A stretch of 64,000 nt of DNA from an uncultured Candidatus Poseidoniales archaeon (GCA_964647665.1 CAZYIX010000001.1:11080-75079); one strand, 5' to 3'; positions 37,433-46,446 are shown, counted from the stretch's first letter. A program made the numbers and translations. The notes: generated by a model from the sequence alone, not told the origin.

Positions 37433-39376
37433 ATGGAAAATACCCTTCGGACCAATGTAGTAACCTTGCTGATTGTAGGCCTGCTCGGCCTCTCAATGAT
37501 GACTCTGACCGCTCCTGAGGCCGAGGCTTCACAAGCCAGAGCAGACCATTCGGTGAACATTCAGAATTTCGCATTTTCACCCTCCAGTCTGACTATTGAT
37601 GTTGGAGACACTGTGGAATGGACGAACAATGACGGAGCATCTCACACAGCAACCAGCACTAGCGGCCCCGCGTCCTTTGATTCTGGCACTATTGGGTCCG
37701 GGTCGTCATTCTCATTCGCCTTCACCACTGCGGGAACCTACGATTACCAATGCAATATCCATACTTCGATGACGGCCACAATCACCGCAGCGGCAGCAAA
37801 TAGTCCACCAGAGGTCTCTGGCGTTGCCCTTACTCCAGACCCGGCGTTAACCGATGATGTCCTATCGGTTTCAGCAACGATATCTGACGCTGATGGAGAT
37901 CAGGTCACGCTCAGTTATGCTTGGTCAATAAATGGCGTCTCAATTAGTCATACAGGCAACACTCTCGACGGCGCGGTATCATTTGACAAGGGTGACCAAG
38001 TCGAAGTTGATGTCACACCGAATGATGGGAGTGTAGATGGCGCAGCCGTCACTTCTAACACCCTGACAATTTCCAATAGTATACCTAGCATTACCTCAGT
38101 TGCGATTATCCCCTCCCCGCTCAATAACGAGTCTGTGGCCACTTGCACTGCGAGTGGTTGGATTGATGCGGATGGTGACCCAGAAGGTTACCAATACACG
38201 TGGCAGGTGAATGGAGTTGTTTCTGGCACAAATCAACTATCTGGCCCATTCATTGCAGACGATGTAGTCTCTTGCACTGCCACGCCTTTTGATGGGGAAT
38301 TGTCAGGGACACCGGTTGCGAGTGGCGATGTGACAGTTGTCGCTTCCGATGCTCCAGATGATGACGCAGATGGTGTTCCTAATTCCGTTGATGACTGCCC
38401 GGGAACTCCGTCGTCTGAAGTGGCGAACTCAAACGGATGTTCGCCATCGCAATTGGACACTGACAATGATGGTGTCAATAACGCTGAAGATATCTGCCCT
38501 GACACTCCAGTGGATTCGCTAGTCAATTCTGCAGGCTGCCCAGTGATTATCGTGACAGCATTGGTCAATCTTGCTGATGGTAACAGCCACGAGATGAACG
38601 TCACTCTCACCGGCAACGAGACCGGCTGGAATGCAACCGTTGCCGTCCTCGACGCAAACAACATCTCCTACAACGCGAGTGAGGGCGAATTCGGCATCTT
38701 CGTCGGTTCCATCGATGGTTCGCTTTCAGATGCGCAGTGGGGCGAGTTCGACTATTGGTGGTGGGGTCTTTTCGTCTGGAATGAATCCACCAGCATCTGG
38801 GAACAATCTTGGATAGGAATCTCTGATATCGTGCTTGAGAATGGCTCCAAGTTCGCTTGGACGCCGACCTTCGATGGGGTATGGACCGAGCAAGCATTCC
38901 CAGAGCAACTTGCACAAATGCAAGCCCTGCAAATTCCAGTGGATACCTGTAATGCCGCTGATCACACTGTCACTATCGGTGGGGATGGTGTTTCTTTCGA
39001 GCCGCCGTCTCTTGAGGTAGATGCCGACGAATCTGTGTGTTGGACTTGGACCAGCACTTCGTTGGGTCACAATATTCGACAGGTCGCAGCCGAGGGTGAA
39101 ACCCAAGGCATGGACGGTGGATTTGGAGTGGAGACACCGGATTCAGACGTTTGGTATACCTTCGTCTTCAACGACAACGGCACCTATCCCTACGTCTGTG
39201 AGCCGCACGCAATCATGGGCATGACTGGCACCATCCAAGTGGGTCCTGCACCGGAACCAGAACCCGAGCCAGAGCCAGAACCCGAGCCACATACGCAAGA
39301 TACACCTGGCTTCGGCTTAGCACTGGGTACCCTCGCAATGTTCGGTGCGGCCACGCTTGTTCGCCGCAACGATTGA
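37433..39376 (+). CDS. Surface protein: cupredoxin - Ig-like - TSP3 - DUF4430 (transcobalamin-C-like) - cupredoxin - PGF-CTERM
   Basis: Type-1 Cu ligand sets H...YQCNIHTSM and H...YVCEPHAIMGM; FGIFVGSIDG...WW...GISD; (PE)n linker; TPGF+TM+RR. Confidence 0.85.
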   Translation: MENTLRTNVVTLLIVGLLGLSMMTLTAPEAEASQARADHSVNIQNFAFSPSSLTIDVGDTVEWTNNDGASHTATSTSGPASFDSGTIGSGSSFSFAFTTAGTYDYQCNIHTSMTATITAAAANSPPEVSGVALTPDPALTDDVLSVSATISDADGDQVTLSYAWSINGVSISHTGNTLDGAVSFDKGDQVEVDVTPNDGSVDGAAVTSNTLTISNSIPSITSVAIIPSPLNNESVATCTASGWIDADGDPEGYQYTWQVNGVVSGTNQLSGPFIADDVVSCTATPFDGELSGTPVASGDVTVVASDAPDDDADGVPNSVDDCPGTPSSEVANSNGCSPSQLDTDNDGVNNAEDICPDTPVDSLVNSAGCPVIIVTALVNLADGNSHEMNVTLTGNETGWNATVAVLDANNISYNASEGEFGIFVGSIDGSLSDAQWGEFDYWWWGLFVWNESTSIWEQSWIGISDIVLENGSKFAWTPTFDGVWTEQAFPEQLAQMQALQIPVDTCNAADHTVTIGGDGVSFEPPSLEVDADESVCWTWTSTSLGHNIRQVAAEGETQGMDGGFGVETPDSDVWYTFVFNDNGTYPYVCEPHAIMGMTGTIQVGPAPEPEPEPEPEPEPHTQDTPGFGLALGTLAMFGAATLVRRND

Positions 39377-39416
39377 TTGCCGCTGATTTCAGACAACGGT
39401 CACCGGAGGTGACCGC

Positions 39417-41417
39417 ATGTGTGCTCGTGCGAAGCTATTGGCTGCATTTGTTGTTCTATCATTGCTTGCTTTCGTGCCGAGTGCTGAGGTCGATGCAACC
39501 TCCGCTCGTCACGGTGGTGAGCCGTGGGTAATACCGCCAGTGCAGTGGAACGTGAGCCTCGATGCTGGCTACATTTCCACGGCCCCGTTGATTACTCCTC
39601 AGGGCATTGTAGTGGTCAAGGTCGGCGGCTCTGTGCCGGGAAGTGATGGCAATGAATCGGCTGGATTGTGGGCCTTCCGCGCAGACACTGGTGAAGTGGT
39701 CTGGCGCTACAATCACTCTACAAGTTCGACAGGTTTTGAAGTCGCTCCGATGATGTGGCTCTCTGATTCACAAAGCTCCAGCACGGCTCCTTGCGGAGCA
39801 GACCGACTGATGGTGGTAACTGGCTGGACCAGCGGACAATTCACCGCAATTGACCTTGCAAACGGAGAAGAAATATGGTCACATCAGACCGAAGTCACCT
39901 CTTGGGGAATAACCGGTGCTGCCAGAGACGTGTTCGGGCATCTTGCGGTTGCTGGAGAGAATAGTATCGAGGTGATTTGTGCTCTCAATGGCACGTTAAT
40001 CGGTTCATCTGACTATGGAAATGACACAGCCTATCGCAGTGGTGTTGGAGTCTCTTTCACCTCCCCCAACACCCTATTTCGCTTCCTTCAGGGTACTGAA
40101 TCCGGTCACTTGCTCATCACTGATGACGACGGTAATCTGCTTTCGAACACCGACCTTGTTGCGTTAGCTAATCTCAGCGGTGAATATAGCATTCAAAGCA
40201 CACCTTCTGGCTTCTGGATGGCAAATGGCACCGTCCATTTGAAGGGTGATACTGGAGGGATTCTGCTCCACTTGCACATCGATGATGATGGTAATGTCAC
40301 GTTGTTGGACCAGACCGAATTACCTGCGGGAGCCGGCACCAATCTCGACTATGCTGGTATGTTTCCCATCACATCTACTGGGGAAGGGGTGACATTCTGG
40401 ATAATCACAAACGATACACTGCAGCCTGCATGGGTGGTCAATGCAACCTCGGTGGCAGGAGAAGTGAGCATTGCCAATCATGACTCTCATGGGATGTTCT
40501 GTATTCCGCAGAATACACAGAATGGCTCTTGGCTATTGTATCACGTTGATGATGGGGCGATTGAATGGCAACCGGACCGTGTTGGCTACCTGACGGCGGC
40601 GTGCGCTGGTGATGGCTTGATGCTGGCTGGCGCAAATGATGCTTCTTGGTTGGAGGTTCGCTACCGCGATGAGGACTATTCGGTGGTGGCAGCTCGCGTC
40701 GCTACTCTACTCGGCTCGCCTGATGAGGAACCCGAACCAGAAGACGGCAATCAGTCCGAGCCTACCGTCTCAACCGGTGAAACCATACCGGTATTCCTGT
40801 CGATCCCATTCTTTGGTGTCGCACTGATTGTCGGGCTCTCGTTTTTGACTCCAGACAAGGATTTACGCCGCCAGATACTGATATTCGCCGCCATTGCAAT
40901 GCTAGTTGCAGTATTGATGATCACGCCTTTCCTCACTGGAATGCTTGAGACTTCACCCGAGGCGGCGTCGAGTGATAGACAGACTGCCTCATCGTATGTT
41001 GATTGGAAATCCAACGCTCCCGAAATGGTATCTGTTGCCTTCCATTTCCCGCATGACCTCTCACCGGGGGGGGATGGGGAATGTGGACTTACTCACTTGC
41101 GTGGTAATTCGGTTGCGCAATACACATTGCCTGCTGATTCTGAACATTGTATCATTGTGGTTTCTTTGGACGTGGAGTCTGGGATGACAGTGGGTGATGC
41201 AACCGTGCAATCACTCGATACAGCCGACCTTGACCACGTGCTGGAAAATCAGCTTCTCGGACTTTTTGTCAAGTCAATAGGTCCTGCTGATGGAGGCGAT
41301 GACAACCGGTGGTGGACCTACGATTTGAACGGAGAATATGGGTCGATCGGCATCTCGGATAAGACAGTGATTGCTGGCGATGAAATCGACTGGCACTTCG
41401 ACGACGGTGGTTACTGA
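39417..41417 (+). CDS. PQQ-like beta-propeller membrane protein with C-terminal DUF4430 domain
   Basis: GGAGGTGA SD; A.....GE..W blades; 2 internal TM; GLFVKSIG...WWTY.LNG...GISD...GDEIDW. Confidence 0.82.
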   Translation: MCARAKLLAAFVVLSLLAFVPSAEVDATSARHGGEPWVIPPVQWNVSLDAGYISTAPLITPQGIVVVKVGGSVPGSDGNESAGLWAFRADTGEVVWRYNHSTSSTGFEVAPMMWLSDSQSSSTAPCGADRLMVVTGWTSGQFTAIDLANGEEIWSHQTEVTSWGITGAARDVFGHLAVAGENSIEVICALNGTLIGSSDYGNDTAYRSGVGVSFTSPNTLFRFLQGTESGHLLITDDDGNLLSNTDLVALANLSGEYSIQSTPSGFWMANGTVHLKGDTGGILLHLHIDDDGNVTLLDQTELPAGAGTNLDYAGMFPITSTGEGVTFWIITNDTLQPAWVVNATSVAGEVSIANHDSHGMFCIPQNTQNGSWLLYHVDDGAIEWQPDRVGYLTAACAGDGLMLAGANDASWLEVRYRDEDYSVVAARVATLLGSPDEEPEPEDGNQSEPTVSTGETIPVFLSIPFFGVALIVGLSFLTPDKDLRRQILIFAAIAMLVAVLMITPFLTGMLETSPEAASSDRQTASSYVDWKSNAPEMVSVAFHFPHDLSPGGDGECGLTHLRGNSVAQYTLPADSEHCIIVVSLDVESGMTVGDATVQSLDTADLDHVLENQLLGLFVKSIGPADGGDDNRWWTYDLNGEYGSIGISDKTVIAGDEIDWHFDDGGY

Positions 41418-41494
41418 ACCAATCAGCATTTTCCGCCTTGAATTAAGGCGAACGCATATCGCCCTTGTAGAGGGCGATATCTGCGGGAGTCACG

Positions 41495-43507
41495 ATGTCG
41501 GTATGGGGATGGCAGGGTGAGGCGAGCGCTCGGCTCGGTCCTCCGCGGCACTTCCGTCTACCATTTCTCATCGTTGCAGTAGTAATTCCTCTAGTGGTAG
41601 ATGATCCGAGATACATGGGCGGCTGGGCGGCTTTCCTCGCTTTGTGGTCACTGACAATGGTTGGCCCGAGTACTCTTGCGAGATGGGTCAAATTGTGGAT
41701 TCCATTGACAATGGTCTACGGTGTATTTCTGTACGGTTTCGGGGTTGCAACAGAGCCCTTAGCAATCGCCATGCTAATCTCTCGCTTATTGCTTGCTTTG
41801 CTCGGAATGCAGATTTTGCAATGGTCGGTTCCGCCTTCAGATGTAGTCTCATCTTTTGAATGGGTTTTACCACGACTTGGCGTTTCTCTCGCCATCGCAT
41901 TGAGATTGGTTCCAAGACTCGAGAGGTCAGCGCGATGGCGACTTGCCACACTCTCCGAGCGTGGATTCAACGATGAAGGCTCCACTATGCAGAAACTGCG
42001 GTTACGTTCGTCGCTCTGGCCGGGGTGGTTTGCCGATTCACTCGACCATGCCCATGACCTCGGTGATGCTGTCCAATCACGTGGTTTGCTCTCGCCTCGT
42101 AAACCGACTGGTGGGGTTTTCAGAGCAACTCTACAAAGTGTGCTAGGAGAGGACAAGGGGGAGCAAAGTCCGCACATAGGTCCGTTCTCGGATATGGTGC
42201 AATTGGGCCTTGATATTGAGATGCGATTGCCGGATGGGCGCTCCATTGGTCGGCACAAGCGATTGTTGCGCGGTGGCTCGGTGATTATGCTCAAAGGACC
42301 ATCCGGTTGCGGCAAATCGAGCCTGCTGAGAGTATTGGCCGGAGTCTCACCGTGGCAGCATCCGGTGACTGTCCACGGCAAGGCGCATCTATCCGGGCAT
42401 CCGGTGCTTGGAGAGGTGGACATCTCATCAGGTCCGTTCTCTGACTCGATTGCCTGTTGGATTCCGCAAGACCCAGACCGCCATGGGATTGCTGAGTCGG
42501 TCCGTCGAGAATTCAGTATCTCTCGCCGCTTGGCCGGTGACTGGAGCCAGGAGTCGATGCTTGAGGAGTTAGAGGCCTGGAATCTCTTGGAAATGCTTGA
42601 TGAGAAGCCGGAGGAACTCTCAGATGGGGAACAGCAGCGATTGTTGCTCGCTGCACATCTTGACCCAATTCAGCCGCTCTGGCTGCTCGATGAAGCCGAT
42701 GTCCATCTCGACGAAGTTGGATTCATCCAATTGGGCAAGGCGGTGGTCAAGCACCGAGCCCGCGGTGGACTTGTCATCGTAGTAGCCCACCGCCATGCTC
42801 GCTGGTCGCCGATAGCCGACGAGGTCATCGAGATGGTTAGTGGAGAAGCACCGACTGAGTTGCCGATATGTGAGGCACCCTCAAAGCGTACTGAGCAGGA
42901 ATGGACCCCTCCGATTATTCACTTATTCTCCAATCAAGTGGAGCCTGTACTTGCTGGAGACCTTGTGGTGGTTACCGGTGAGAACGGTACTGGCAAGACC
43001 ACTTTATTGCGTGAATGGGCTGCTGCAGAGGGCATCCCGTGGTTGCCGACTTCACCTGACCGACGCCTACTCGGCATGACTGTTGGCCAAGAGTTGACTC
43101 TGCAACATCCACTCCTGCGACAGGCCTCAGTCCTAGTCGAAGGAGCTCGATTATCCGACGAGGCGAAGCGATTGCAGATACGTCAGTCGGGACTTCGTTT
43201 GAACCTAGGCCTTTCTCACCTTTCTGATGTCACTCCTGTTCACGACCTTTCGTGTGGGGAACGGCGTCGGCTCTCGCTGCTACCTCTATTGATTTCAGAG
43301 CCAAGAATCATGCTACTCGATGAGATTGATCACGCACTTGATGATTCCATGTTGGCAGAATTGCTACGCCTGCTCGGCGAGGCTCGCGCTGACGGTTGTA
43401 CGCTGATTTTGACCAGTCACAGTCCGGACCTTGCACTGTGGGCTTCGATGTCCGGGGGTCGTCGATGGTTGATTGAGGATGGAGTGATGTCGGAGGTGAC
43501 GGTATGA
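41495..43507 (+). CDS. ECF transporter module: EcfT fused to two ABC ATPase domains
   Basis: TM region with ALRLVP, ERG and SRG coupling motifs; GPSGCGKS/LSDGE/LLDE/H and GENGTGKT/LSCGE/LLDE/SH. Confidence 0.88.
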   Translation: MSVWGWQGEASARLGPPRHFRLPFLIVAVVIPLVVDDPRYMGGWAAFLALWSLTMVGPSTLARWVKLWIPLTMVYGVFLYGFGVATEPLAIAMLISRLLLALLGMQILQWSVPPSDVVSSFEWVLPRLGVSLAIALRLVPRLERSARWRLATLSERGFNDEGSTMQKLRLRSSLWPGWFADSLDHAHDLGDAVQSRGLLSPRKPTGGVFRATLQSVLGEDKGEQSPHIGPFSDMVQLGLDIEMRLPDGRSIGRHKRLLRGGSVIMLKGPSGCGKSSLLRVLAGVSPWQHPVTVHGKAHLSGHPVLGEVDISSGPFSDSIACWIPQDPDRHGIAESVRREFSISRRLAGDWSQESMLEELEAWNLLEMLDEKPEELSDGEQQRLLLAAHLDPIQPLWLLDEADVHLDEVGFIQLGKAVVKHRARGGLVIVVAHRHARWSPIADEVIEMVSGEAPTELPICEAPSKRTEQEWTPPIIHLFSNQVEPVLAGDLVVVTGENGTGKTTLLREWAAAEGIPWLPTSPDRRLLGMTVGQELTLQHPLLRQASVLVEGARLSDEAKRLQIRQSGLRLNLGLSHLSDVTPVHDLSCGERRRLSLLPLLISEPRIMLLDEIDHALDDSMLAELLRLLGEARADGCTLILTSHSPDLALWASMSGGRRWLIEDGVMSEVTV

Positions 43508-44295
43508 TTGACATCGATTCGATTGTTGAATGGTCTGCAAGTCCGGGTGGAATTGCAATTTGGTTGACCATGCTGCTCGGTCTGATTTTCGGTAGCATGC
43601 TGCTGAGTGCCGACCGCAGCATGAAATTAGGTCGTGAGGCGGCGCTGCTCGCGCTGCTCGCAGCGGTTGCAAGCGCAGCACGAGTGCTATTCGCAGCATT
43701 ACCCAATGTGCAACCAGTCACCATTCTGATTCTGCTGATTGGAATCCATTTGGGACCACGACGAGCAACAGCAGTGGCAGTGCTAGTCGCCCTACTCTCA
43801 AACATGGCTCTTGGACACGGGCCGTGGACGTTCTATCAGGCTGTGGCATGGGCTTTGGTTGGCATCTCTGGCTGGGTGCTTCGACCATGGCTGGTGAGTC
43901 GTGATGGCATGACAGTTCGAGTGCTGCCTCTGGCGATTTTAGGCTTCATCTGGGGTTTCCTATATGACTGGCTAGTTTCCATCACTATGCTTGCAATAAC
44001 TCAGCAAATTGAATCATATATCTCCTACTTCATGCTCGGTTTACCCTTTGACCTGATGCACGCAGTTGGCAATGTTCTGTTCGCGATTTGGCTCGCTCCT
44101 TCGCTGCACCGGTTGCTGTGGTTACACTGCAGACACGATGCAGGAGGCTGGGTTGACGATCTTCCTGAGGACGTTCTGCGTCGCGAAGCGTTCATTTCAG
44201 GTGGGTCCGACGCCACATTGAGCGAGAGCAAGTCTGGCGCCGACCCGATGGCAGGAATCCGTAGATTCGACACGATTGATGAAGGAGGTGACTGA
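43504..44295 (+). CDS. ECF S component, CbrT-like (probable cobalamin)
   Basis: LPNVQPVT, SN..LG.GPWT.YQ, GLPFD..HA.GN motifs; GGAGGTGA SD; ATGA overlap. Confidence 0.85.
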   Translation: MIDIDSIVEWSASPGGIAIWLTMLLGLIFGSMLLSADRSMKLGREAALLALLAAVASAARVLFAALPNVQPVTILILLIGIHLGPRRATAVAVLVALLSNMALGHGPWTFYQAVAWALVGISGWVLRPWLVSRDGMTVRVLPLAILGFIWGFLYDWLVSITMLAITQQIESYISYFMLGLPFDLMHAVGNVLFAIWLAPSLHRLLWLHCRHDAGGWVDDLPEDVLRREAFISGGSDATLSESKSGADPMAGIRRFDTIDEGGD

Positions 44296-44760: not shown

Positions 44761-46446
44761 ATGGATGATATTGACGTCTTTGAAGCGGAACTGCTCGACG
44801 ACGACGAAATACTCGAAGCAACCGTCCTTGAAGATGACGAAATTGTTGTAGCGGCCATTCTTGATGACATCCACCTCGACAAAGATCGCCGTGAGAAGCG
44901 CCAACTCGACATCGCAATGGCAGCAACAGGTGCCATCGTCATCGTGTTTAGCGTGATTTCTGCAATCTTCGGCACCCCAGTAATTGAGCATATCAACGAC
45001 TTCAACATCTCTGGCTACCAGCAGGTGGATGTTGAGTGGCATGAGTCAATATACATGCCACGTCACCCCAATTGTGTCGACCCGAACAATGGACAGGATA
45101 TGCCTGAATACGGCATCGGATACGAGCCATCACTAGCCATTGACAGCCAAGGTAACATGTTCATCACTGCCCACAAGGATTTGCGTTGGTCTTCTCCCGA
45201 TGGTGGCCTTGCCAACCCCTTAGACGGGCAGGCGCACATCTATCCCGACGGTGCTTGCCTCGACGGTTATTCCACCTCGTGGGACTACTTCGCCTCGTGG
45301 TTCTGGGTTTCCAACGACAATGGTAGCACATGGGGCTGGGGAGACAACTTTGAGGAAACTCCGGGCACTGTAGTTGAGGGGCAGGTGACCAATGGAGCGA
45401 GCGGTAGTGCTTGTCTTGGAGATGAAGGAGATATTGCAATCGATGAGATGGACCGCATTTACTATCTCGACACCTACCTTGAGGACAACTGGATTCATCA
45501 ATTCACCAACGGCGGCAACACCTTCGAAAGTGGATTCTGTGATCGCCAATACTCAATGGCTGCTGACGACAGACCGTGGATACAGGCACAAGGGCAGGGT
45601 ATTGTCCACTATCTCGGTAATTCTGGAGTATCGGTGCAAGACTGTGAGAATGGTGCTGCACGTTACTGGTATTACCGCAGCACCGACCAAGGCCAGACTT
45701 GGAGCCAATGTTTCTCGATGCCTGGCGGCTGGTCGACAATTGCCAGCGAGCGAGGCGGCCCCTACGTCTTCGTAGCGCAGGAGAACGCCGATACTTTGAC
45801 TGGCCACGTGCAGGTACGCATTTCATCGGATACCGGAGAGAATTGGGGTACCCCGATTAATGTCGGACCTCGTGAAGGCAACCCACCTGAGGGCTATCCG
45901 CTGGTTGAGACCAATGGCGTCGGCACCGTTGGCGTTGTTTGGGCCGACGCGCCTCAAGGCGGCACCGGAGTATGGGCGATTCGCCTTGCGATGTCGTATG
46001 ATAGAGGCGAGAGTTGGGAGAGTTGGGACATCACCCCGCAATGGCAAGGCATCACTATGTATCCTTTCATTTCAATCAGTGAGGACAACATCACGACGGT
46101 GACGTTCTACGGACTTGATTTCGAGCGGGCTGATGGCAACTACACAGTTGGTCATCAATGGCATCTTTACTCCGCTGCTTTGCGAGAACCGCATGAGAAT
46201 GACACCTTTGATTACGAGATTGCAGCATGGAATGAAGATGGCACCCCAGAAGCATTGCACACCGTCACTCAGTATGAGGAGGATACCGGGGATGTTCACG
46301 CTCTACACGACTTCTTTGAGACAGTTATCTCACCCGATGGGACATGGATGGGCATAGCCTACCAGCAGAATATCGGGGCACATCCATTCGAGGACGATGA
46401 GGAGCAGCGATACATCAAATTCCTCCGCGGCGACTTCGACGTCTGA
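44761..46446 (+). CDS. Membrane-anchored Asp-box (BNR) beta-propeller, sialidase-like
   Basis: SNDNGSTW, STDQGQTW, SSDTGENW, SYDRGESW; DRPW; N-terminal TM. Confidence 0.85.
   Translation: MDDIDVFEAELLDDDEILEATVLEDDEIVVAAILDDIHLDKDRREKRQLDIAMAATGAIVIVFSVISAIFGTPVIEHINDFNISGYQQVDVEWHESIYMPRHPNCVDPNNGQDMPEYGIGYEPSLAIDSQGNMFITAHKDLRWSSPDGGLANPLDGQAHIYPDGACLDGYSTSWDYFASWFWVSNDNGSTWGWGDNFEETPGTVVEGQVTNGASGSACLGDEGDIAIDEMDRIYYLDTYLEDNWIHQFTNGGNTFESGFCDRQYSMAADDRPWIQAQGQGIVHYLGNSGVSVQDCENGAARYWYYRSTDQGQTWSQCFSMPGGWSTIASERGGPYVFVAQENADTLTGHVQVRISSDTGENWGTPINVGPREGNPPEGYPLVETNGVGTVGVVWADAPQGGTGVWAIRLAMSYDRGESWESWDITPQWQGITMYPFISISEDNITTVTFYGLDFERADGNYTVGHQWHLYSAALREPHENDTFDYEIAAWNEDGTPEALHTVTQYEEDTGDVHALHDFFETVISPDGTWMGIAYQQNIGAHPFEDDEEQRYIKFLRGDFDV

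Follow-up and report, generated by a model that had tools for sequence, protein, structure and literature searches.

A probable cobamide uptake locus with two surface proteins and a fused ECF module in a Marine Group II archaeon

Results

Organisation of the locus

The window, i.e. the whole stretch of DNA analysed, comprises 64,000 nucleotides from an uncultured Candidatus Poseidoniales archaeon (GCA_964647665.1, CAZYIX010000001.1:11080-75079) and harbours, between positions 37433 and 44295, four co-oriented ORFs on the + strand, here referred to as g1 to g4 (Table 1; numbered genera are always written with the word genus). Judged from their sequences these encode two surface proteins, an EcfT-EcfA-EcfA' fusion and a CbrT-like S component. 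The close spacing described in the original prediction was found at exactly the same positions, with 40 bases between g1 and g2, 77 bases between g2 and g3 and an overlap of 4 bases between g3 and g4, and Shine-Dalgarno-like motifs (GGAGGTGA/GGTGA) are located upstream of g2 and g4. Housekeeping genes flank the locus tightly, GatE ending 76 bases upstream and Pth2 starting 0 bases downstream, and since the array continues into them without real gaps the spacing alone does not delimit an operon.

Contigs from four marine metagenome runs, each of a different study and one of them perhaps the source assembly, show the same gene order and a T-A junction of g3 free of indels. An Rfam scan of the window revealed no cobalamin riboswitch and no other Rfam family, and a Pfam scan of the locus no CbiM/CbiN-type partner. 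The g2-g3 spacer is predicted to form two RNA hairpins with a fold energy equalled by 2 out of 200 shuffles, and in an alignment of three genomes the second hairpin is preserved with compensatory changes in a second genus.

Table 1. Position of the genes, domains and RNA hairpins of the locus, counted from the first base of the window
Feature	Position	Strand	Basis
g1, 647 aa surface protein	37433..39376	+	
g1 N-terminal cupredoxin, residues 21-119	37493..37789	+	PF13473 4.1e-9, PF00127
g1 DUF4430-like (transcobalamin-like beta-grasp) domain, residues ~392-479	38606..38869	+	
g1 C-terminal cupredoxin, residues 513-603	38969..39241	+	PF00127
g1 PGF-CTERM-like archaeal surface-anchor signal	39302..39367	+	motif visible in translation
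g2, 666 aa protein	39417..41417	+	
g2 beta-propeller, residues ~43-440	39543..40736	+	PF13360 PQQ_2 8.5e-9
g2 membrane hairpin, residues 454-512	40776..40952	+	Kyte-Doolittle segments 454-479, 482-512
g2 DUF4430 domain, residues 611-662	41247..41402	+	PF14478 35.2-39.4 bits, cut-off 23.8
Two RNA hairpins, g2-g3 spacer	41434..41485	+	fold -29.1 kcal/mol, z -3.15
g3, 670 aa EcfT-EcfA-EcfA' fusion	41495..43507	+	
g3 T domain, residues 1 to ~205	41495..42109	+	divergent EcfT
g3 two ABC ATPase domains, residues ~259-401, ~478-650	42269..43444	+	PF00005 4.9e-27, two stretches
g4, 263 aa CbrT-like S component	43504..44295	+	

The surface proteins g1 and g2

From the N-terminus, g1 consists of a signal peptide, a cupredoxin, a repeat/thrombospondin-type-3 region, a DUF4430-like domain, a second cupredoxin, a Pro/Glu linker and a PGF-CTERM-like tail. 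The cupredoxin expected in this protein was recovered, Pfam Copper-bind (PF00127) matching in both stretches (1.3e-23, 83.7 bits). In the N-terminal domain, which shows 61–63% identity to its counterparts in g1-like proteins from two further genera, the ligand pattern His...Cys-x2-His-x2-Met can be read off the translation, and in the C-terminal domain H162, C205, H208 and M213 (fragment numbering) are invariant in all five aligned proteins. No equivalog cut-off of NCBIfam was reached (halocyanin domain 77.9 versus 93.8), and both domains are, by family model and the His-Cys-His-Met set, predicted type-1 (blue) copper domains.

The DUF4430 domain proposed for g1 failed Pfam PF14478 (13 bits, E 0.12–0.22), but hhalign aligned it to a profile built from 21 of the order's DUF4430 domains with a probability of 96% (E 3.8e-9, 77 columns), and it is for this reason called DUF4430-like and not a curated PF14478 member. 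The three named Atlas clusters nearest to this domain carry PF14478, with scores (0.86–0.89) that have the level of a lead only, and an AF2 model of the DUF4430-like and cupredoxin unit from a five-row alignment was unusable, with a mean pLDDT of 54 and less than 50 in the DUF4430-like part. Likewise, the PGF-CTERM proposed for g1 is visible as a PGF motif with a hydrophobic and a basic tail, but its scores remained under the cut-offs of both PF18204 (15 bits versus 18.8) and TIGR04126 (17.6 bits versus 24.5). An orthologue in the same genus is split across two contig ends. When residues 385–620 were searched against a set of 5.8 billion proteins two homologues of near full length (P0118 and P0119) were among the matches listed, in a search that excluded proteins shorter than 355 aa, the 347-aa form of genus g2 among them.

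The second protein, g2, is built up of a signal/anchor, a PQQ-like beta-propeller, an acidic linker, a two-helix membrane hairpin and an extracellular C-terminal DUF4430 domain. Propeller, two hydrophobic segments and DUF4430 domain were thereby all found as anticipated for a beta-propeller/DUF4430 membrane protein, the DUF4430 domain passing the HMM check against PF14478, a model matched by 20 of the 21 members of the alignment of the order's DUF4430 domains. A phmmer search of the PDB with the C-terminal 172 residues, which include this domain, gave 0 matches. Of 20 loci examined, 8 have a homologous protein with propeller, hairpin and DUF4430 domain in this slot. The propeller has Pfam matches of the PQQ_2 type only, and a BtuG-like role for it, which was considered, would be an analogy. 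Complex prediction with residues 1–215 of g4 and the DUF4430 domain of g2 returned a score of 0.00, which is no answer and is neutral on binding.

The fused ECF module g3

The N-terminal domain of g3 is a divergent EcfT in which four membrane helices are predicted, besides two long coupling helices that bear the Arg-Gly motifs R156-G157 and R196-G197. A pair of coupling helices, with a conserved Arg-Gly motif in either one, is a hallmark of EcfT; in the model of the domain long helices are situated at residues 126–155 and 164–195, and across 15 aligned T domains P140, R156 and G157 do not vary and R196 hardly does. The EcfT/CbiQ model PF02361 gave no match at E <= 10 for residues 1–252 and none at E <= 1 when the whole genome was searched. 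The PDB matches of the domain are nonetheless EcfT chains only, 5d3m_D (E 0.003) in a sequence search and 4hzu_T (0.024) and 4huq_T (0.037) in a profile search. When 1.84 billion proteins were scanned 14 matched, PF02361 being passed by 10 of the 12 of these that were run against it, and the nearest outside clusters, P0120 (E 5e-51) and P0121 (1e-48), are T-A-A' fusions passing PF02361 (a search for loci of P0120 returned a single unrelated ABC ATPase locus). In Foldseek ranks 1–10 were all ECF T components, with probabilities of 0.99–1.0 and TM-scores of 0.32–0.53 for a model with a pLDDT of 59.9. Together with the two ABC_tran domains, the EcfT homology seen in the PDB, the clusters and Foldseek upholds the EcfT-A-A' fusion that had been suggested; the matches below threshold include the NCBIfam models cbiO and ECF_ATPase.

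An assembly or frameshift artefact as the origin of the T-A fusion was rejected, since the contigs of the four runs are without indels and since 42 homologues of 597–690 aa all have the N-terminal domain and ABC_tran (PF00005) on one chain; none of the 42 has a precomputed PF02361 match. With the only T component found in the genome, g3 is a dedicated energy-coupling module.

The CbrT-like S component g4

A phmmer search of the PDB with g4 revealed CbrT (6fnp_A) as the sole match at E <= 10 (E 1.7e-15, 154 residues), aligning residues 46–199 with residues 12–164 of CbrT and placing the motif PNVQPVT, common to both, in register, in agreement with the CbrT-like S component with a PNVQP motif that had been proposed. 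When comparing with curated models PF20221 (DUF6580) was passed with 34.3 bits (cut-off 27), PF12822 remained at 26 bits, below 30.7, and in NCBIfam no model matched. In addition g4 has an N-terminal helix and a conserved C-terminal extension of ~60 aa, the latter absent from T-less forms in the alignment.

In a tree of 37 CbrT-like proteins the three rows of genus g1 and genus g5 fall outside a clade (support 98/96) formed by the other 25 rows of the order and on the side of 9 outside matches. The ECF motor in these two genera is either an addition or a retention, and as the tree is unrooted and its branches are long no choice is made between a retained ancestral ECF form and re-acquisition by transfer.

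B12 and haem metabolism of the genome

The genome, which is 98.9% complete, encodes adenosyl-B12 enzymes (MM_CoA_mutase at two places, B12-binding domains and NrdJ) and a PduO adenosyltransferase, while CobS, CbiB, CbiC and FecCD/BtuC gave 0 matches, so that the suggested combination of B12-dependent enzymes and absent cob genes was borne out. In the same genome g3 and g4 are the only ECF module and the only S component, g4 also being the only PF12822-type match. Marine Group II has been reported, in the part of the source available, to be B12-auxotrophic and to rely on B12 made by others (PMC9296465).

ALAD (PF00490) likewise gave 0 matches in the genome and is missing in 18 of 21 relatives searched, yet haem-copper oxidase subunit I was found in all five genomes checked, including this one. 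A need for haem import consequently exists too, and the missing ALAD suggests that haem is another compound this archaeon must acquire.

Distribution in the order, the phylum and bacteria

A homologue of g4 is present in all 61 genomes of the order and CbiC in none (0/61). The DUF4430 gene sits between GatE and the CbrT-like gene in each of the 20 loci examined, and the pair of DUF4430 and CbrT is given for 61 of 61 genomes. A T component could be detected in only 5 of the 61 genomes, leaving 56 with none detectable, and the conserved core in the order is the DUF4430 protein and CbrT only. Since a solitary CbrT of Lactobacillus delbrueckii gave no growth support and needs its ECF module, according to the part of the paper available (PMC5997447), the pair in these 56 genomes either works differently or has an unseen partner.

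In a sample of 301 genomes of the phylum, ALAD being missing from 214, CbrT-like genes were found in 0 of 48 CbiC-positive genomes, in 22 of 42 with ALAD but no CbiC and in 78 of 211 with neither; comparing 22/42 with 0/48, the distribution tracks the loss of corrin synthesis and not that of ALAD. A naive Fisher p of 5e-10 overstates the exclusion of CbrT and CbiC, as the CbiC-positive set covers only five families and 34 of its 48 genomes come from a single one. Among other Thermoplasmatota DUF4430 genes are located nearby in all eight CbrT loci picked. Of the bacterial loci encoding the nearest named homologue family of g4, 27 were found and 14 scanned; a Cobalamin or AdoCbl riboswitch lies upstream on the same strand in four, the other 10 being without, and in one locus (L098) the order is riboswitch, DUF4430 gene, S component. 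The named bacterial homologue closest to g4 lies downstream of an AdoCbl riboswitch and has a DUF4430 gene as neighbour.

Discussion

Comparison with known systems

The closest proven system is ECF-CbrT of L. delbrueckii (PDB 6FNP), described by Santos et al. in 2018, which moves cobalamin and cobinamide, hemin not competing (PMC5997447, as far as the available part of the text goes). Its CbrT is homologous to g4, its EcfT is the only PDB match of the T sequence of g3, and the two organisms share B12 auxotrophy as well as NrdJ and PduO; in L. delbrueckii cbrT is situated in an nrdJ-cbrS-cbrT-pduO cluster. There, however, three separate proteins make up an ECF module that is shared (group II), while the module here is dedicated and forms one T-A-A' chain, with a T domain that, unlike the known module, escapes Pfam CbiQ; the N-terminal helix and ~60 aa extension of g4 and the large surface proteins are further additions.

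Transcobalamin-like SLBB proteins encoded together with CbiO/CbiQ genes were described by Burroughs, Balaji, Iyer and Aravind in 2007, who predicted B12 scavenging (PMC1796856). The available part of that paper shares with the present locus extracellular DUF4430/SLBB domains, two paralogous SLBB proteins per operon, a beta-propeller fusion (Clostridium), co-operonic ECF-type ATPase and T genes and hosts without B12 synthesis; its systems are mainly from Gram-positive bacteria, and a cupredoxin fusion, a membrane-hairpin tether and a T-A-A' fusion were not found in that part of the text. A B12 role in archaea was doubted there because the archaea seen by the authors make B12, which the archaeon studied here, unlike those, does not. 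In Lactobacillus sakei the ECF-like system Lsa1836-1840 (Verplaetse et al., bioRxiv 10.1101/864751), likened here by description from the available part of the preprint, combines within a single transcription unit S, fused A-A', T and one or more surface proteins resembling transcobalamin beta, but includes an alpha/alpha-toroid (transcobalamin alpha-like) protein that the window lacks, and is linked to uptake of haem, not B12.

A further relative, locus L086 in another family of Thermoplasmatota, has propeller, DUF4430, T, duplicated ATPase and CbrT-like S in the same order on one strand. It differs in that propeller (the head gene, an unfused 566-aa PQQ_2 protein, 2.8e-33) and DUF4430 are separate genes, in a separate T that passes Pfam CbiQ (80 bits) and in having no cupredoxin protein. 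For the T-less pairs of DUF4430 and CbrT in 56 of the 61 genomes an analogy is offered by BtuM and other solitary S-component-like B12 carriers (Rempel et al. 2018, PMC6072759, part of the text), which are small membrane B12 binders without an ECF module; these belong, by description, to another protein family, and the window does have an ECF module.

The kind of system is already known, predicted in 2007 and proven for ECF-CbrT in 2018. New here are the fusions, the DUF4430-like/blue-copper protein, which is new relative to the described systems, and the order-wide pair of DUF4430 and CbrT, mostly without a detectable T. The original prediction did not recognise the architecture as described in marine archaea, and a literature search indeed gave no paper describing such a system or naming uptake machinery in Marine Group II, although the kind itself had been described in 2007, as the available part of that text shows (PMC1796856).

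Proposed function and alternatives

We consider it probable that the locus is a scavenging and import system for cobamide (vitamin B12) in a B12-auxotrophic Marine Group II archaeon, most likely an ECF-CbrT transporter of group I (dedicated) that is assisted by two surface proteins. The corrinoid scavenging proposed from the start is supported by the CbrT homology, the auxotrophy pattern, the exclusion of CbrT and CbiC, the bacterial B12 riboswitches and the modules of L086, and from these we infer substrate binding, hand-over and direction of transport.

Import of haem, or of tetrapyrroles generally including haem, with DUF4430 proteins that capture haem, is a live but unlikely rival. It is kept alive by the missing ALAD, in this genome as in most relatives and most of the phylum sample, and by the L. 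sakei lsa1836-1840 operon, whose transcobalamin alpha- and beta-like proteins are assigned to haem uptake in the available part of the preprint (bioRxiv 10.1101/864751); the presence of haem-copper oxidase subunit I also fits it, as does the finding of no other tetrapyrrole importer (FecCD 0 matches in the genome). Hemin was however no competitor of cobalamin in the one characterised CbrT (PMC5997447, part of the text), CbrT-like genes occur in ALAD-positive genomes that lack CbiC but in no CbiC-positive ones, 12 ALAD-positive genomes of the order retain the locus, and the bacterial homologues lie behind B12 riboswitches. That the transporter serves some other micronutrient (cobalt or nickel ions, a different vitamin), its likeness to CbrT being one of family level only, is highly improbable: it would agree with g4 passing only the unnamed family PF20221, with PF12822 under its cut-off and no match in NCBIfam, and with related S components of the family that also match the riboflavin-type model PF07155, but CbrT and no other S component was matched by g4 in the PDB, the S gene is throughout paired with a transcobalamin-type domain, its homologues follow B12 riboswitches and the locus has no CbiM/CbiN-type partner.

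The place of g1 is less settled, and the reading that it is a halocyanin-type surface electron carrier merely adjoining a transporter of g2–g4 has a substantial chance, though we do not favour it. Only 3 of 19 genera (the genus of the window, genus g2 and genus g3) proved to have a gene of the g1 type at this locus, the protein in the slot of genus g3 having a cupredoxin and repeats without a DUF4430-like domain; genus g7 has a g1-like gene on another contig, genus g5, the next genus with a full ECF operon, is without g1, and the spacing is tight throughout the region, housekeeping neighbours included. Against this stand the fusion of the DUF4430-like domain to a copper-ligand cupredoxin in all five aligned proteins, which come from two genera and from two metagenomic clusters, the recurrence of such proteins in the exact slot upstream of DUF4430/CbrT genes, and the pairing of paralogous surface SLBB proteins in one operon, a feature of the class in the part of PMC1796856 available.

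In the B12 import favoured here, the DUF4430 domain of g2 would be held just outside the membrane by the two-helix hairpin, next to a beta-propeller as its probable scaffold in the S-layer space, and would catch scarce corrinoid and hand it to the S component g4. This may then topple within the membrane, against the EcfT domain that g3 contributes, and the two fused ATPase domains of g3 would power release into the cytoplasm, where the PduO-type adenosyltransferase would produce adenosyl-B12 for methylmalonyl-CoA mutase, an IcmF-like fused mutase and class II ribonucleotide reductase. The putatively PGF-CTERM-anchored g1, with its divergent DUF4430-like domain between two type-1 copper domains, could be a lineage-specific outer stage of capture or processing.

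A bolder proposal, which we hold to be rather doubtful, is that g1 is an extracellular redox-active corrinoid receptor and that the tethered DUF4430 protein and solitary CbrT of the order constitute an ATP-independent B12 importer. The transcobalamin-like domain of g1 would hold the cobamide while the adjoining blue-copper centres swap an electron with cobalt, e.g. taking Co(III) hydroxocobalamin to cob(II)alamin and loosening the upper ligand, before the cofactor passes to g2 and CbrT; the lineage of the window would have coupled the importer to a fused ECF motor.

Significance

With the one characterised CbrT dependent on its ECF module, the predominance of T-less genomes poses a mechanistic question to the ECF field, and the natural variants of one system, with and without ECF motor, propeller and copper protein, could show what each part adds. 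The fusion of a DUF4430-like domain and cupredoxin hints at extracellular redox handling of a cofactor. The missing ALAD, with the haem acquisition that it suggests, bears on nutrient dependencies in the surface ocean, and for Marine Group II the locus is a concrete candidate for the machinery of B12 uptake.

Organisation of the locus

All four genes were found as open reading frames on the forward strand, co-oriented and where the original prediction had put them. Genes g1 and g2 are separated by 40 bases and g2 and g3 by 77 bases, whereas g4 begins inside g3 with a shared ATGA; g2 and g4 are preceded by Shine-Dalgarno-like GGAGGTGA/GGTGA motifs. The GC content of the region (37433-44295) shows no anomaly. 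Upstream lie MCM and GatE, the latter ending 76 bases before g1, and Pth2 starts immediately 3' of the g4 stop codon; since these housekeeping genes are flush with the array, the limits of the operon are not set by spacing alone. Contigs of four marine metagenome runs (four studies), one of which possibly supplied the window, cover the stretch with at least 95% identity and zero indels, one contig of 13.6 kb reaching from g1 to the first of the ATPase domains in g3 and a second from the end of g3 to Pth2.

Coordinates of genes g1-g4 and of further features in the window, its genome (G000) and fetched loci (L072, L090, L091)
Feature	Location	Strand	Description
Gene g1	37433-39376	+	ORF, 647 aa
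Gene g2	39417-41417	+	ORF, 666 aa
Gene g3	41495-43507	+	ORF, 670 aa
Gene g4	43504-44295	+	ORF, 263 aa
g2-g3 spacer hairpins	41434-41485		two stable RNA hairpins
g4 C-terminal extension	44130-44292		g4 residues about 210-263
BNR/Asp-box-like protein	44761-46446		561 aa, 3' of Pth2
Fused mutase frame	G000:C4:74364-77606		1208 aa, outside the window
ORF of genus g2	L072:7197-7850	-	218 aa
Long CbrT-like ORF	L090:4405-7167	+	921 aa
Long CbrT-like ORF	L091:5835-7028	+	398 aa

The spacer between g2 and g3 contains two stable RNA hairpins (-29.1 kcal/mol, z -3.15), the second of which is kept within the same genus and recurs in genus g5, where the changes in its stem are compensatory. The hairpins could serve to adjust how much read-through from the genes of the surface proteins reaches those of the transporter. 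The protein encoded 3' of Pth2 has weak BNR/Asp-box matches, and several genera carry 47–70% identical counterparts 3' of the locus (genomes G028, G002, G014, G019, G003 and G030). Family f3, the order's second large family, has two Pth2-like genes in tandem after the locus instead of one (L027-L031, L040, L041), with 44–58% and 34–39% identity to Pth2 of the window. The upstream MCM match is in two pieces in L033 (G009) and L071 (G003), with a gap of ~50 residues in one case and a frame change in the other; possible causes include an intein, a frameshift and an assembly error.

Transporter components

The N-terminal 250-residue membrane domain of g3, which is followed by two ABC ATPase domains, gave no match to Pfam CbiQ (PF02361). 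Searches against PDB returned EcfT chains as the sole sequence matches, with E 0.003 for the single sequence and E 0.024 and 0.037 for a profile of 5 rows; in each case the alignment covered the coupling-helix region. When 1.84 billion representatives were scanned in full with HMMER, 14 proteins came up, and 12 of them were run against Pfam, the exceptions being P0024, which is the family of the query itself, and P0122, a fragment of 119 aa. Ten of the 12 pass PF02361, among them the two closest outside clusters, both of them T-A-A' fusions as well, and P0128 and P0129 do not. In a Foldseek search with the low-confidence AF2 model of the domain (pLDDT 59.9; the AF2 models rest on shallow alignments of 21 and 5 rows) ranks 1–10 were all ECF T components, followed by a sharp drop, and the coupling-helix proline and both Arg-Gly positions are conserved across 15 aligned T domains. 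Judged by these comparisons the domain is an EcfT despite the absent Pfam match, and the proposed EcfT-A-A' fusion thus stands.

For gene g4, predicted to encode a CbrT-like S component, the only PDB match was CbrT from the ECF-CbrT complex of L. delbrueckii (E 1.7e-15, the alignment including the PNVQPVT motif), and the protein also passes PF20221. In both genera with the ECF fusion the CbrT-like proteins end in a conserved extension of ~60 aa, absent from solitary forms and bacterial homologues, which may contact the T-A-A' chain. In an unrooted CbrT tree of 37 rows, the order's other 25 rows form a well-supported clade that excludes the ECF-coupled proteins. Among other Thermoplasmatota the CbrT-like domain was seen at the C-terminus of the longer ORFs in L090 and L091, which are further S-component fusion forms.

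Surface proteins

The protein encoded by g1 contains two cupredoxin domains (residues 21–119 and 513–603; Pfam Copper-bind 1.3e-23) with thrombospondin-type-3-like repeats between them, and a PGF-CTERM-like tail that scores slightly below both curated cut-offs. Its proposed DUF4430 domain reached only 13 bits in Pfam but matched a profile of 21 DUF4430 domains of the order (hhalign probability 96%, E 3.8e-9, 77 columns), and is therefore named DUF4430-like; the three closest named Atlas clusters, taken as leads only, all carry PF14478. For g2 the assignment held outright, the C-terminal DUF4430 domain scoring over the cut-off behind a PQQ-type beta-propeller and two hydrophobic helices (residues 454–512).

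In genera g1, g2 and g3, cupredoxin proteins occupy the slot ahead of the DUF4430 gene. In genus g2 the protein consists of a signal peptide, a DUF4430-like domain, a cupredoxin and PGF-CTERM and nothing more, and it shows 31–33% identity to the C-terminal half of the gene g1 protein, the four copper ligands being invariant. One genome of this genus has a 218-aa ORF between the propeller-DUF4430 and CbrT-like genes (L072), with no hydrophobic segments seen in its translation.

Distribution in the order and the phylum

A homologue of g4 is present in 61/61 genomes of the order. In 20 loci, fetched out of 60 relatives and picked for long contigs and spread, the arrangement on one strand was without exception GatE, at least one intervening gene, the CbrT-like gene and Pth2, and the intervening slot always holds a DUF4430 protein, either as a small anchored form (152–220 aa, 12 loci) or as the propeller-hairpin-DUF4430 form (540–665 aa, 8 loci). 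When searching with the protein query, its own profile and a broader 15-row T profile, the T domain was detected in only five of the 61 genomes, from two genera; the broader profile gave one extra borderline match (E 0.0099), and PF02361 was over cut-off in none of the 61. The conserved core is thus a DUF4430 protein together with a solitary CbrT-like protein, and the window, with its ECF motor, is the exception within its order.

Outside the order, DUF4430 genes were found near CbrT in all eight picked Thermoplasmatota loci. One of these contains propeller, DUF4430, CbiQ, a duplicated ATPase and the S component, unfused and in the same order as in the window, which thus holds a condensed, fused version of a cluster spread across the phylum.

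Cobamide and haem requirements of the host

Homologues with 60–63% identity are named Candidatus Thalassarchaeaceae, a family of Poseidoniales (Marine Group II), or Thalassarchaeum, which suggests the same placement for the host. Its genome (1.91 Mb, 98.9% complete) was checked for B12-dependent enzymes and for an absence of cob genes: methylmalonyl-CoA mutase, a PduO-type adenosyltransferase and a ribonucleotide reductase of class II are present, and CobS, CbiB and CbiC gave no match. A further open frame with MM_CoA_mutase and B12-binding matches is read by us as an IcmF-like fused mutase, which counts as a third client of adenosyl-B12 in a genome this small. With the enzymes and the adenosyltransferase present and the synthesis markers absent, the cell needs complete cobamide from outside. 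Neither BtuC-type permeases nor any EcfT or S component beyond g3 and g4 were found in this genome, and the locus is its sole recognisable candidate cobamide importer.

ALAD (HemB, PF00490) likewise gave no match in the genome, and neither 18 of the 21 relatives that were searched nor 214 of the 301 genomes sampled from the phylum have it. All five genomes checked contain haem-copper oxidase subunit I, and external haem is therefore likely to be required as well. This suggests that haem auxotrophy is widespread in the order, on which no literature was found for Poseidoniales.

Substrate of the system

The cell's probable need for haem, and the assignment of an L. sakei operon of the same type to haem in the part of bioRxiv 10.1101/864751 available, open the alternative that haem is what the system takes up. 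Against it, the sole characterised relative, ECF-CbrT, transports cobalamin and cobinamide, and hemin is no competitor in the portion of that paper available (PMC5997447). The phylum sample points the same way: CbrT-like genes (E <= 1e-10) occur in 0/48 CbiC-positive genomes, in 22/42 that are ALAD-positive and CbiC-negative and in 78/211 that lack both, and thus track the loss of corrin synthesis rather than that of ALAD, although the CbiC-positive genomes come from five families only and a naive p-value for the exclusion overstates the case.

For the closest named bacterial homologue family of g4, 27 loci were found and 14 scanned for riboswitches; four have a Cobalamin or AdoCbl riboswitch directly upstream on the same strand, and in one of these loci a DUF4430 gene (127 aa) comes next, with the S component after it. 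The ten scanned loci without a riboswitch, and the lack of any found in the window, count against B12. With the transport data, the auxotrophy pattern, the CbiC exclusion and the bacterial riboswitches all favouring B12, the cobalamin-capture interpretation was supported: genomic sequence argues that the four genes probably serve cobamide uptake, haem being an unlikely substrate.

Relation to known systems

The kind of system is already known. In the sections available of Burroughs et al. 2007 (PMC1796856), extracellular transcobalamin-like SLBB proteins are described, often as two paralogues per operon and once fused to a beta-propeller, in operons with CbiO- and CbiQ-like genes; B12 scavenging was predicted for the hosts, which lack B12 synthesis, and was doubted for archaea because those known at the time are B12 producers. 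ECF-CbrT was proven by Santos et al. 2018, who also point out an nrdJ-cbrS-cbrT-pduO cluster (PMC5997447, as far as available). No description from Marine Group II was found in the open-access main texts searched, and the words cobalamin, B12, haem, vitamin and ECF are all absent from Rinke et al. 2018.

New here are the archaeal, B12-auxotrophic host, two kinds of fusion (T-A-A' and propeller-hairpin-DUF4430), a surface protein of DUF4430-like and blue-copper domains for which no described counterpart was found, and a CbrT/DUF4430 pair that is universal in the order, with the ECF motor absent from nearly all its genomes. The blue-copper surface protein and the mostly motor-less pair are the questions worth experiment.
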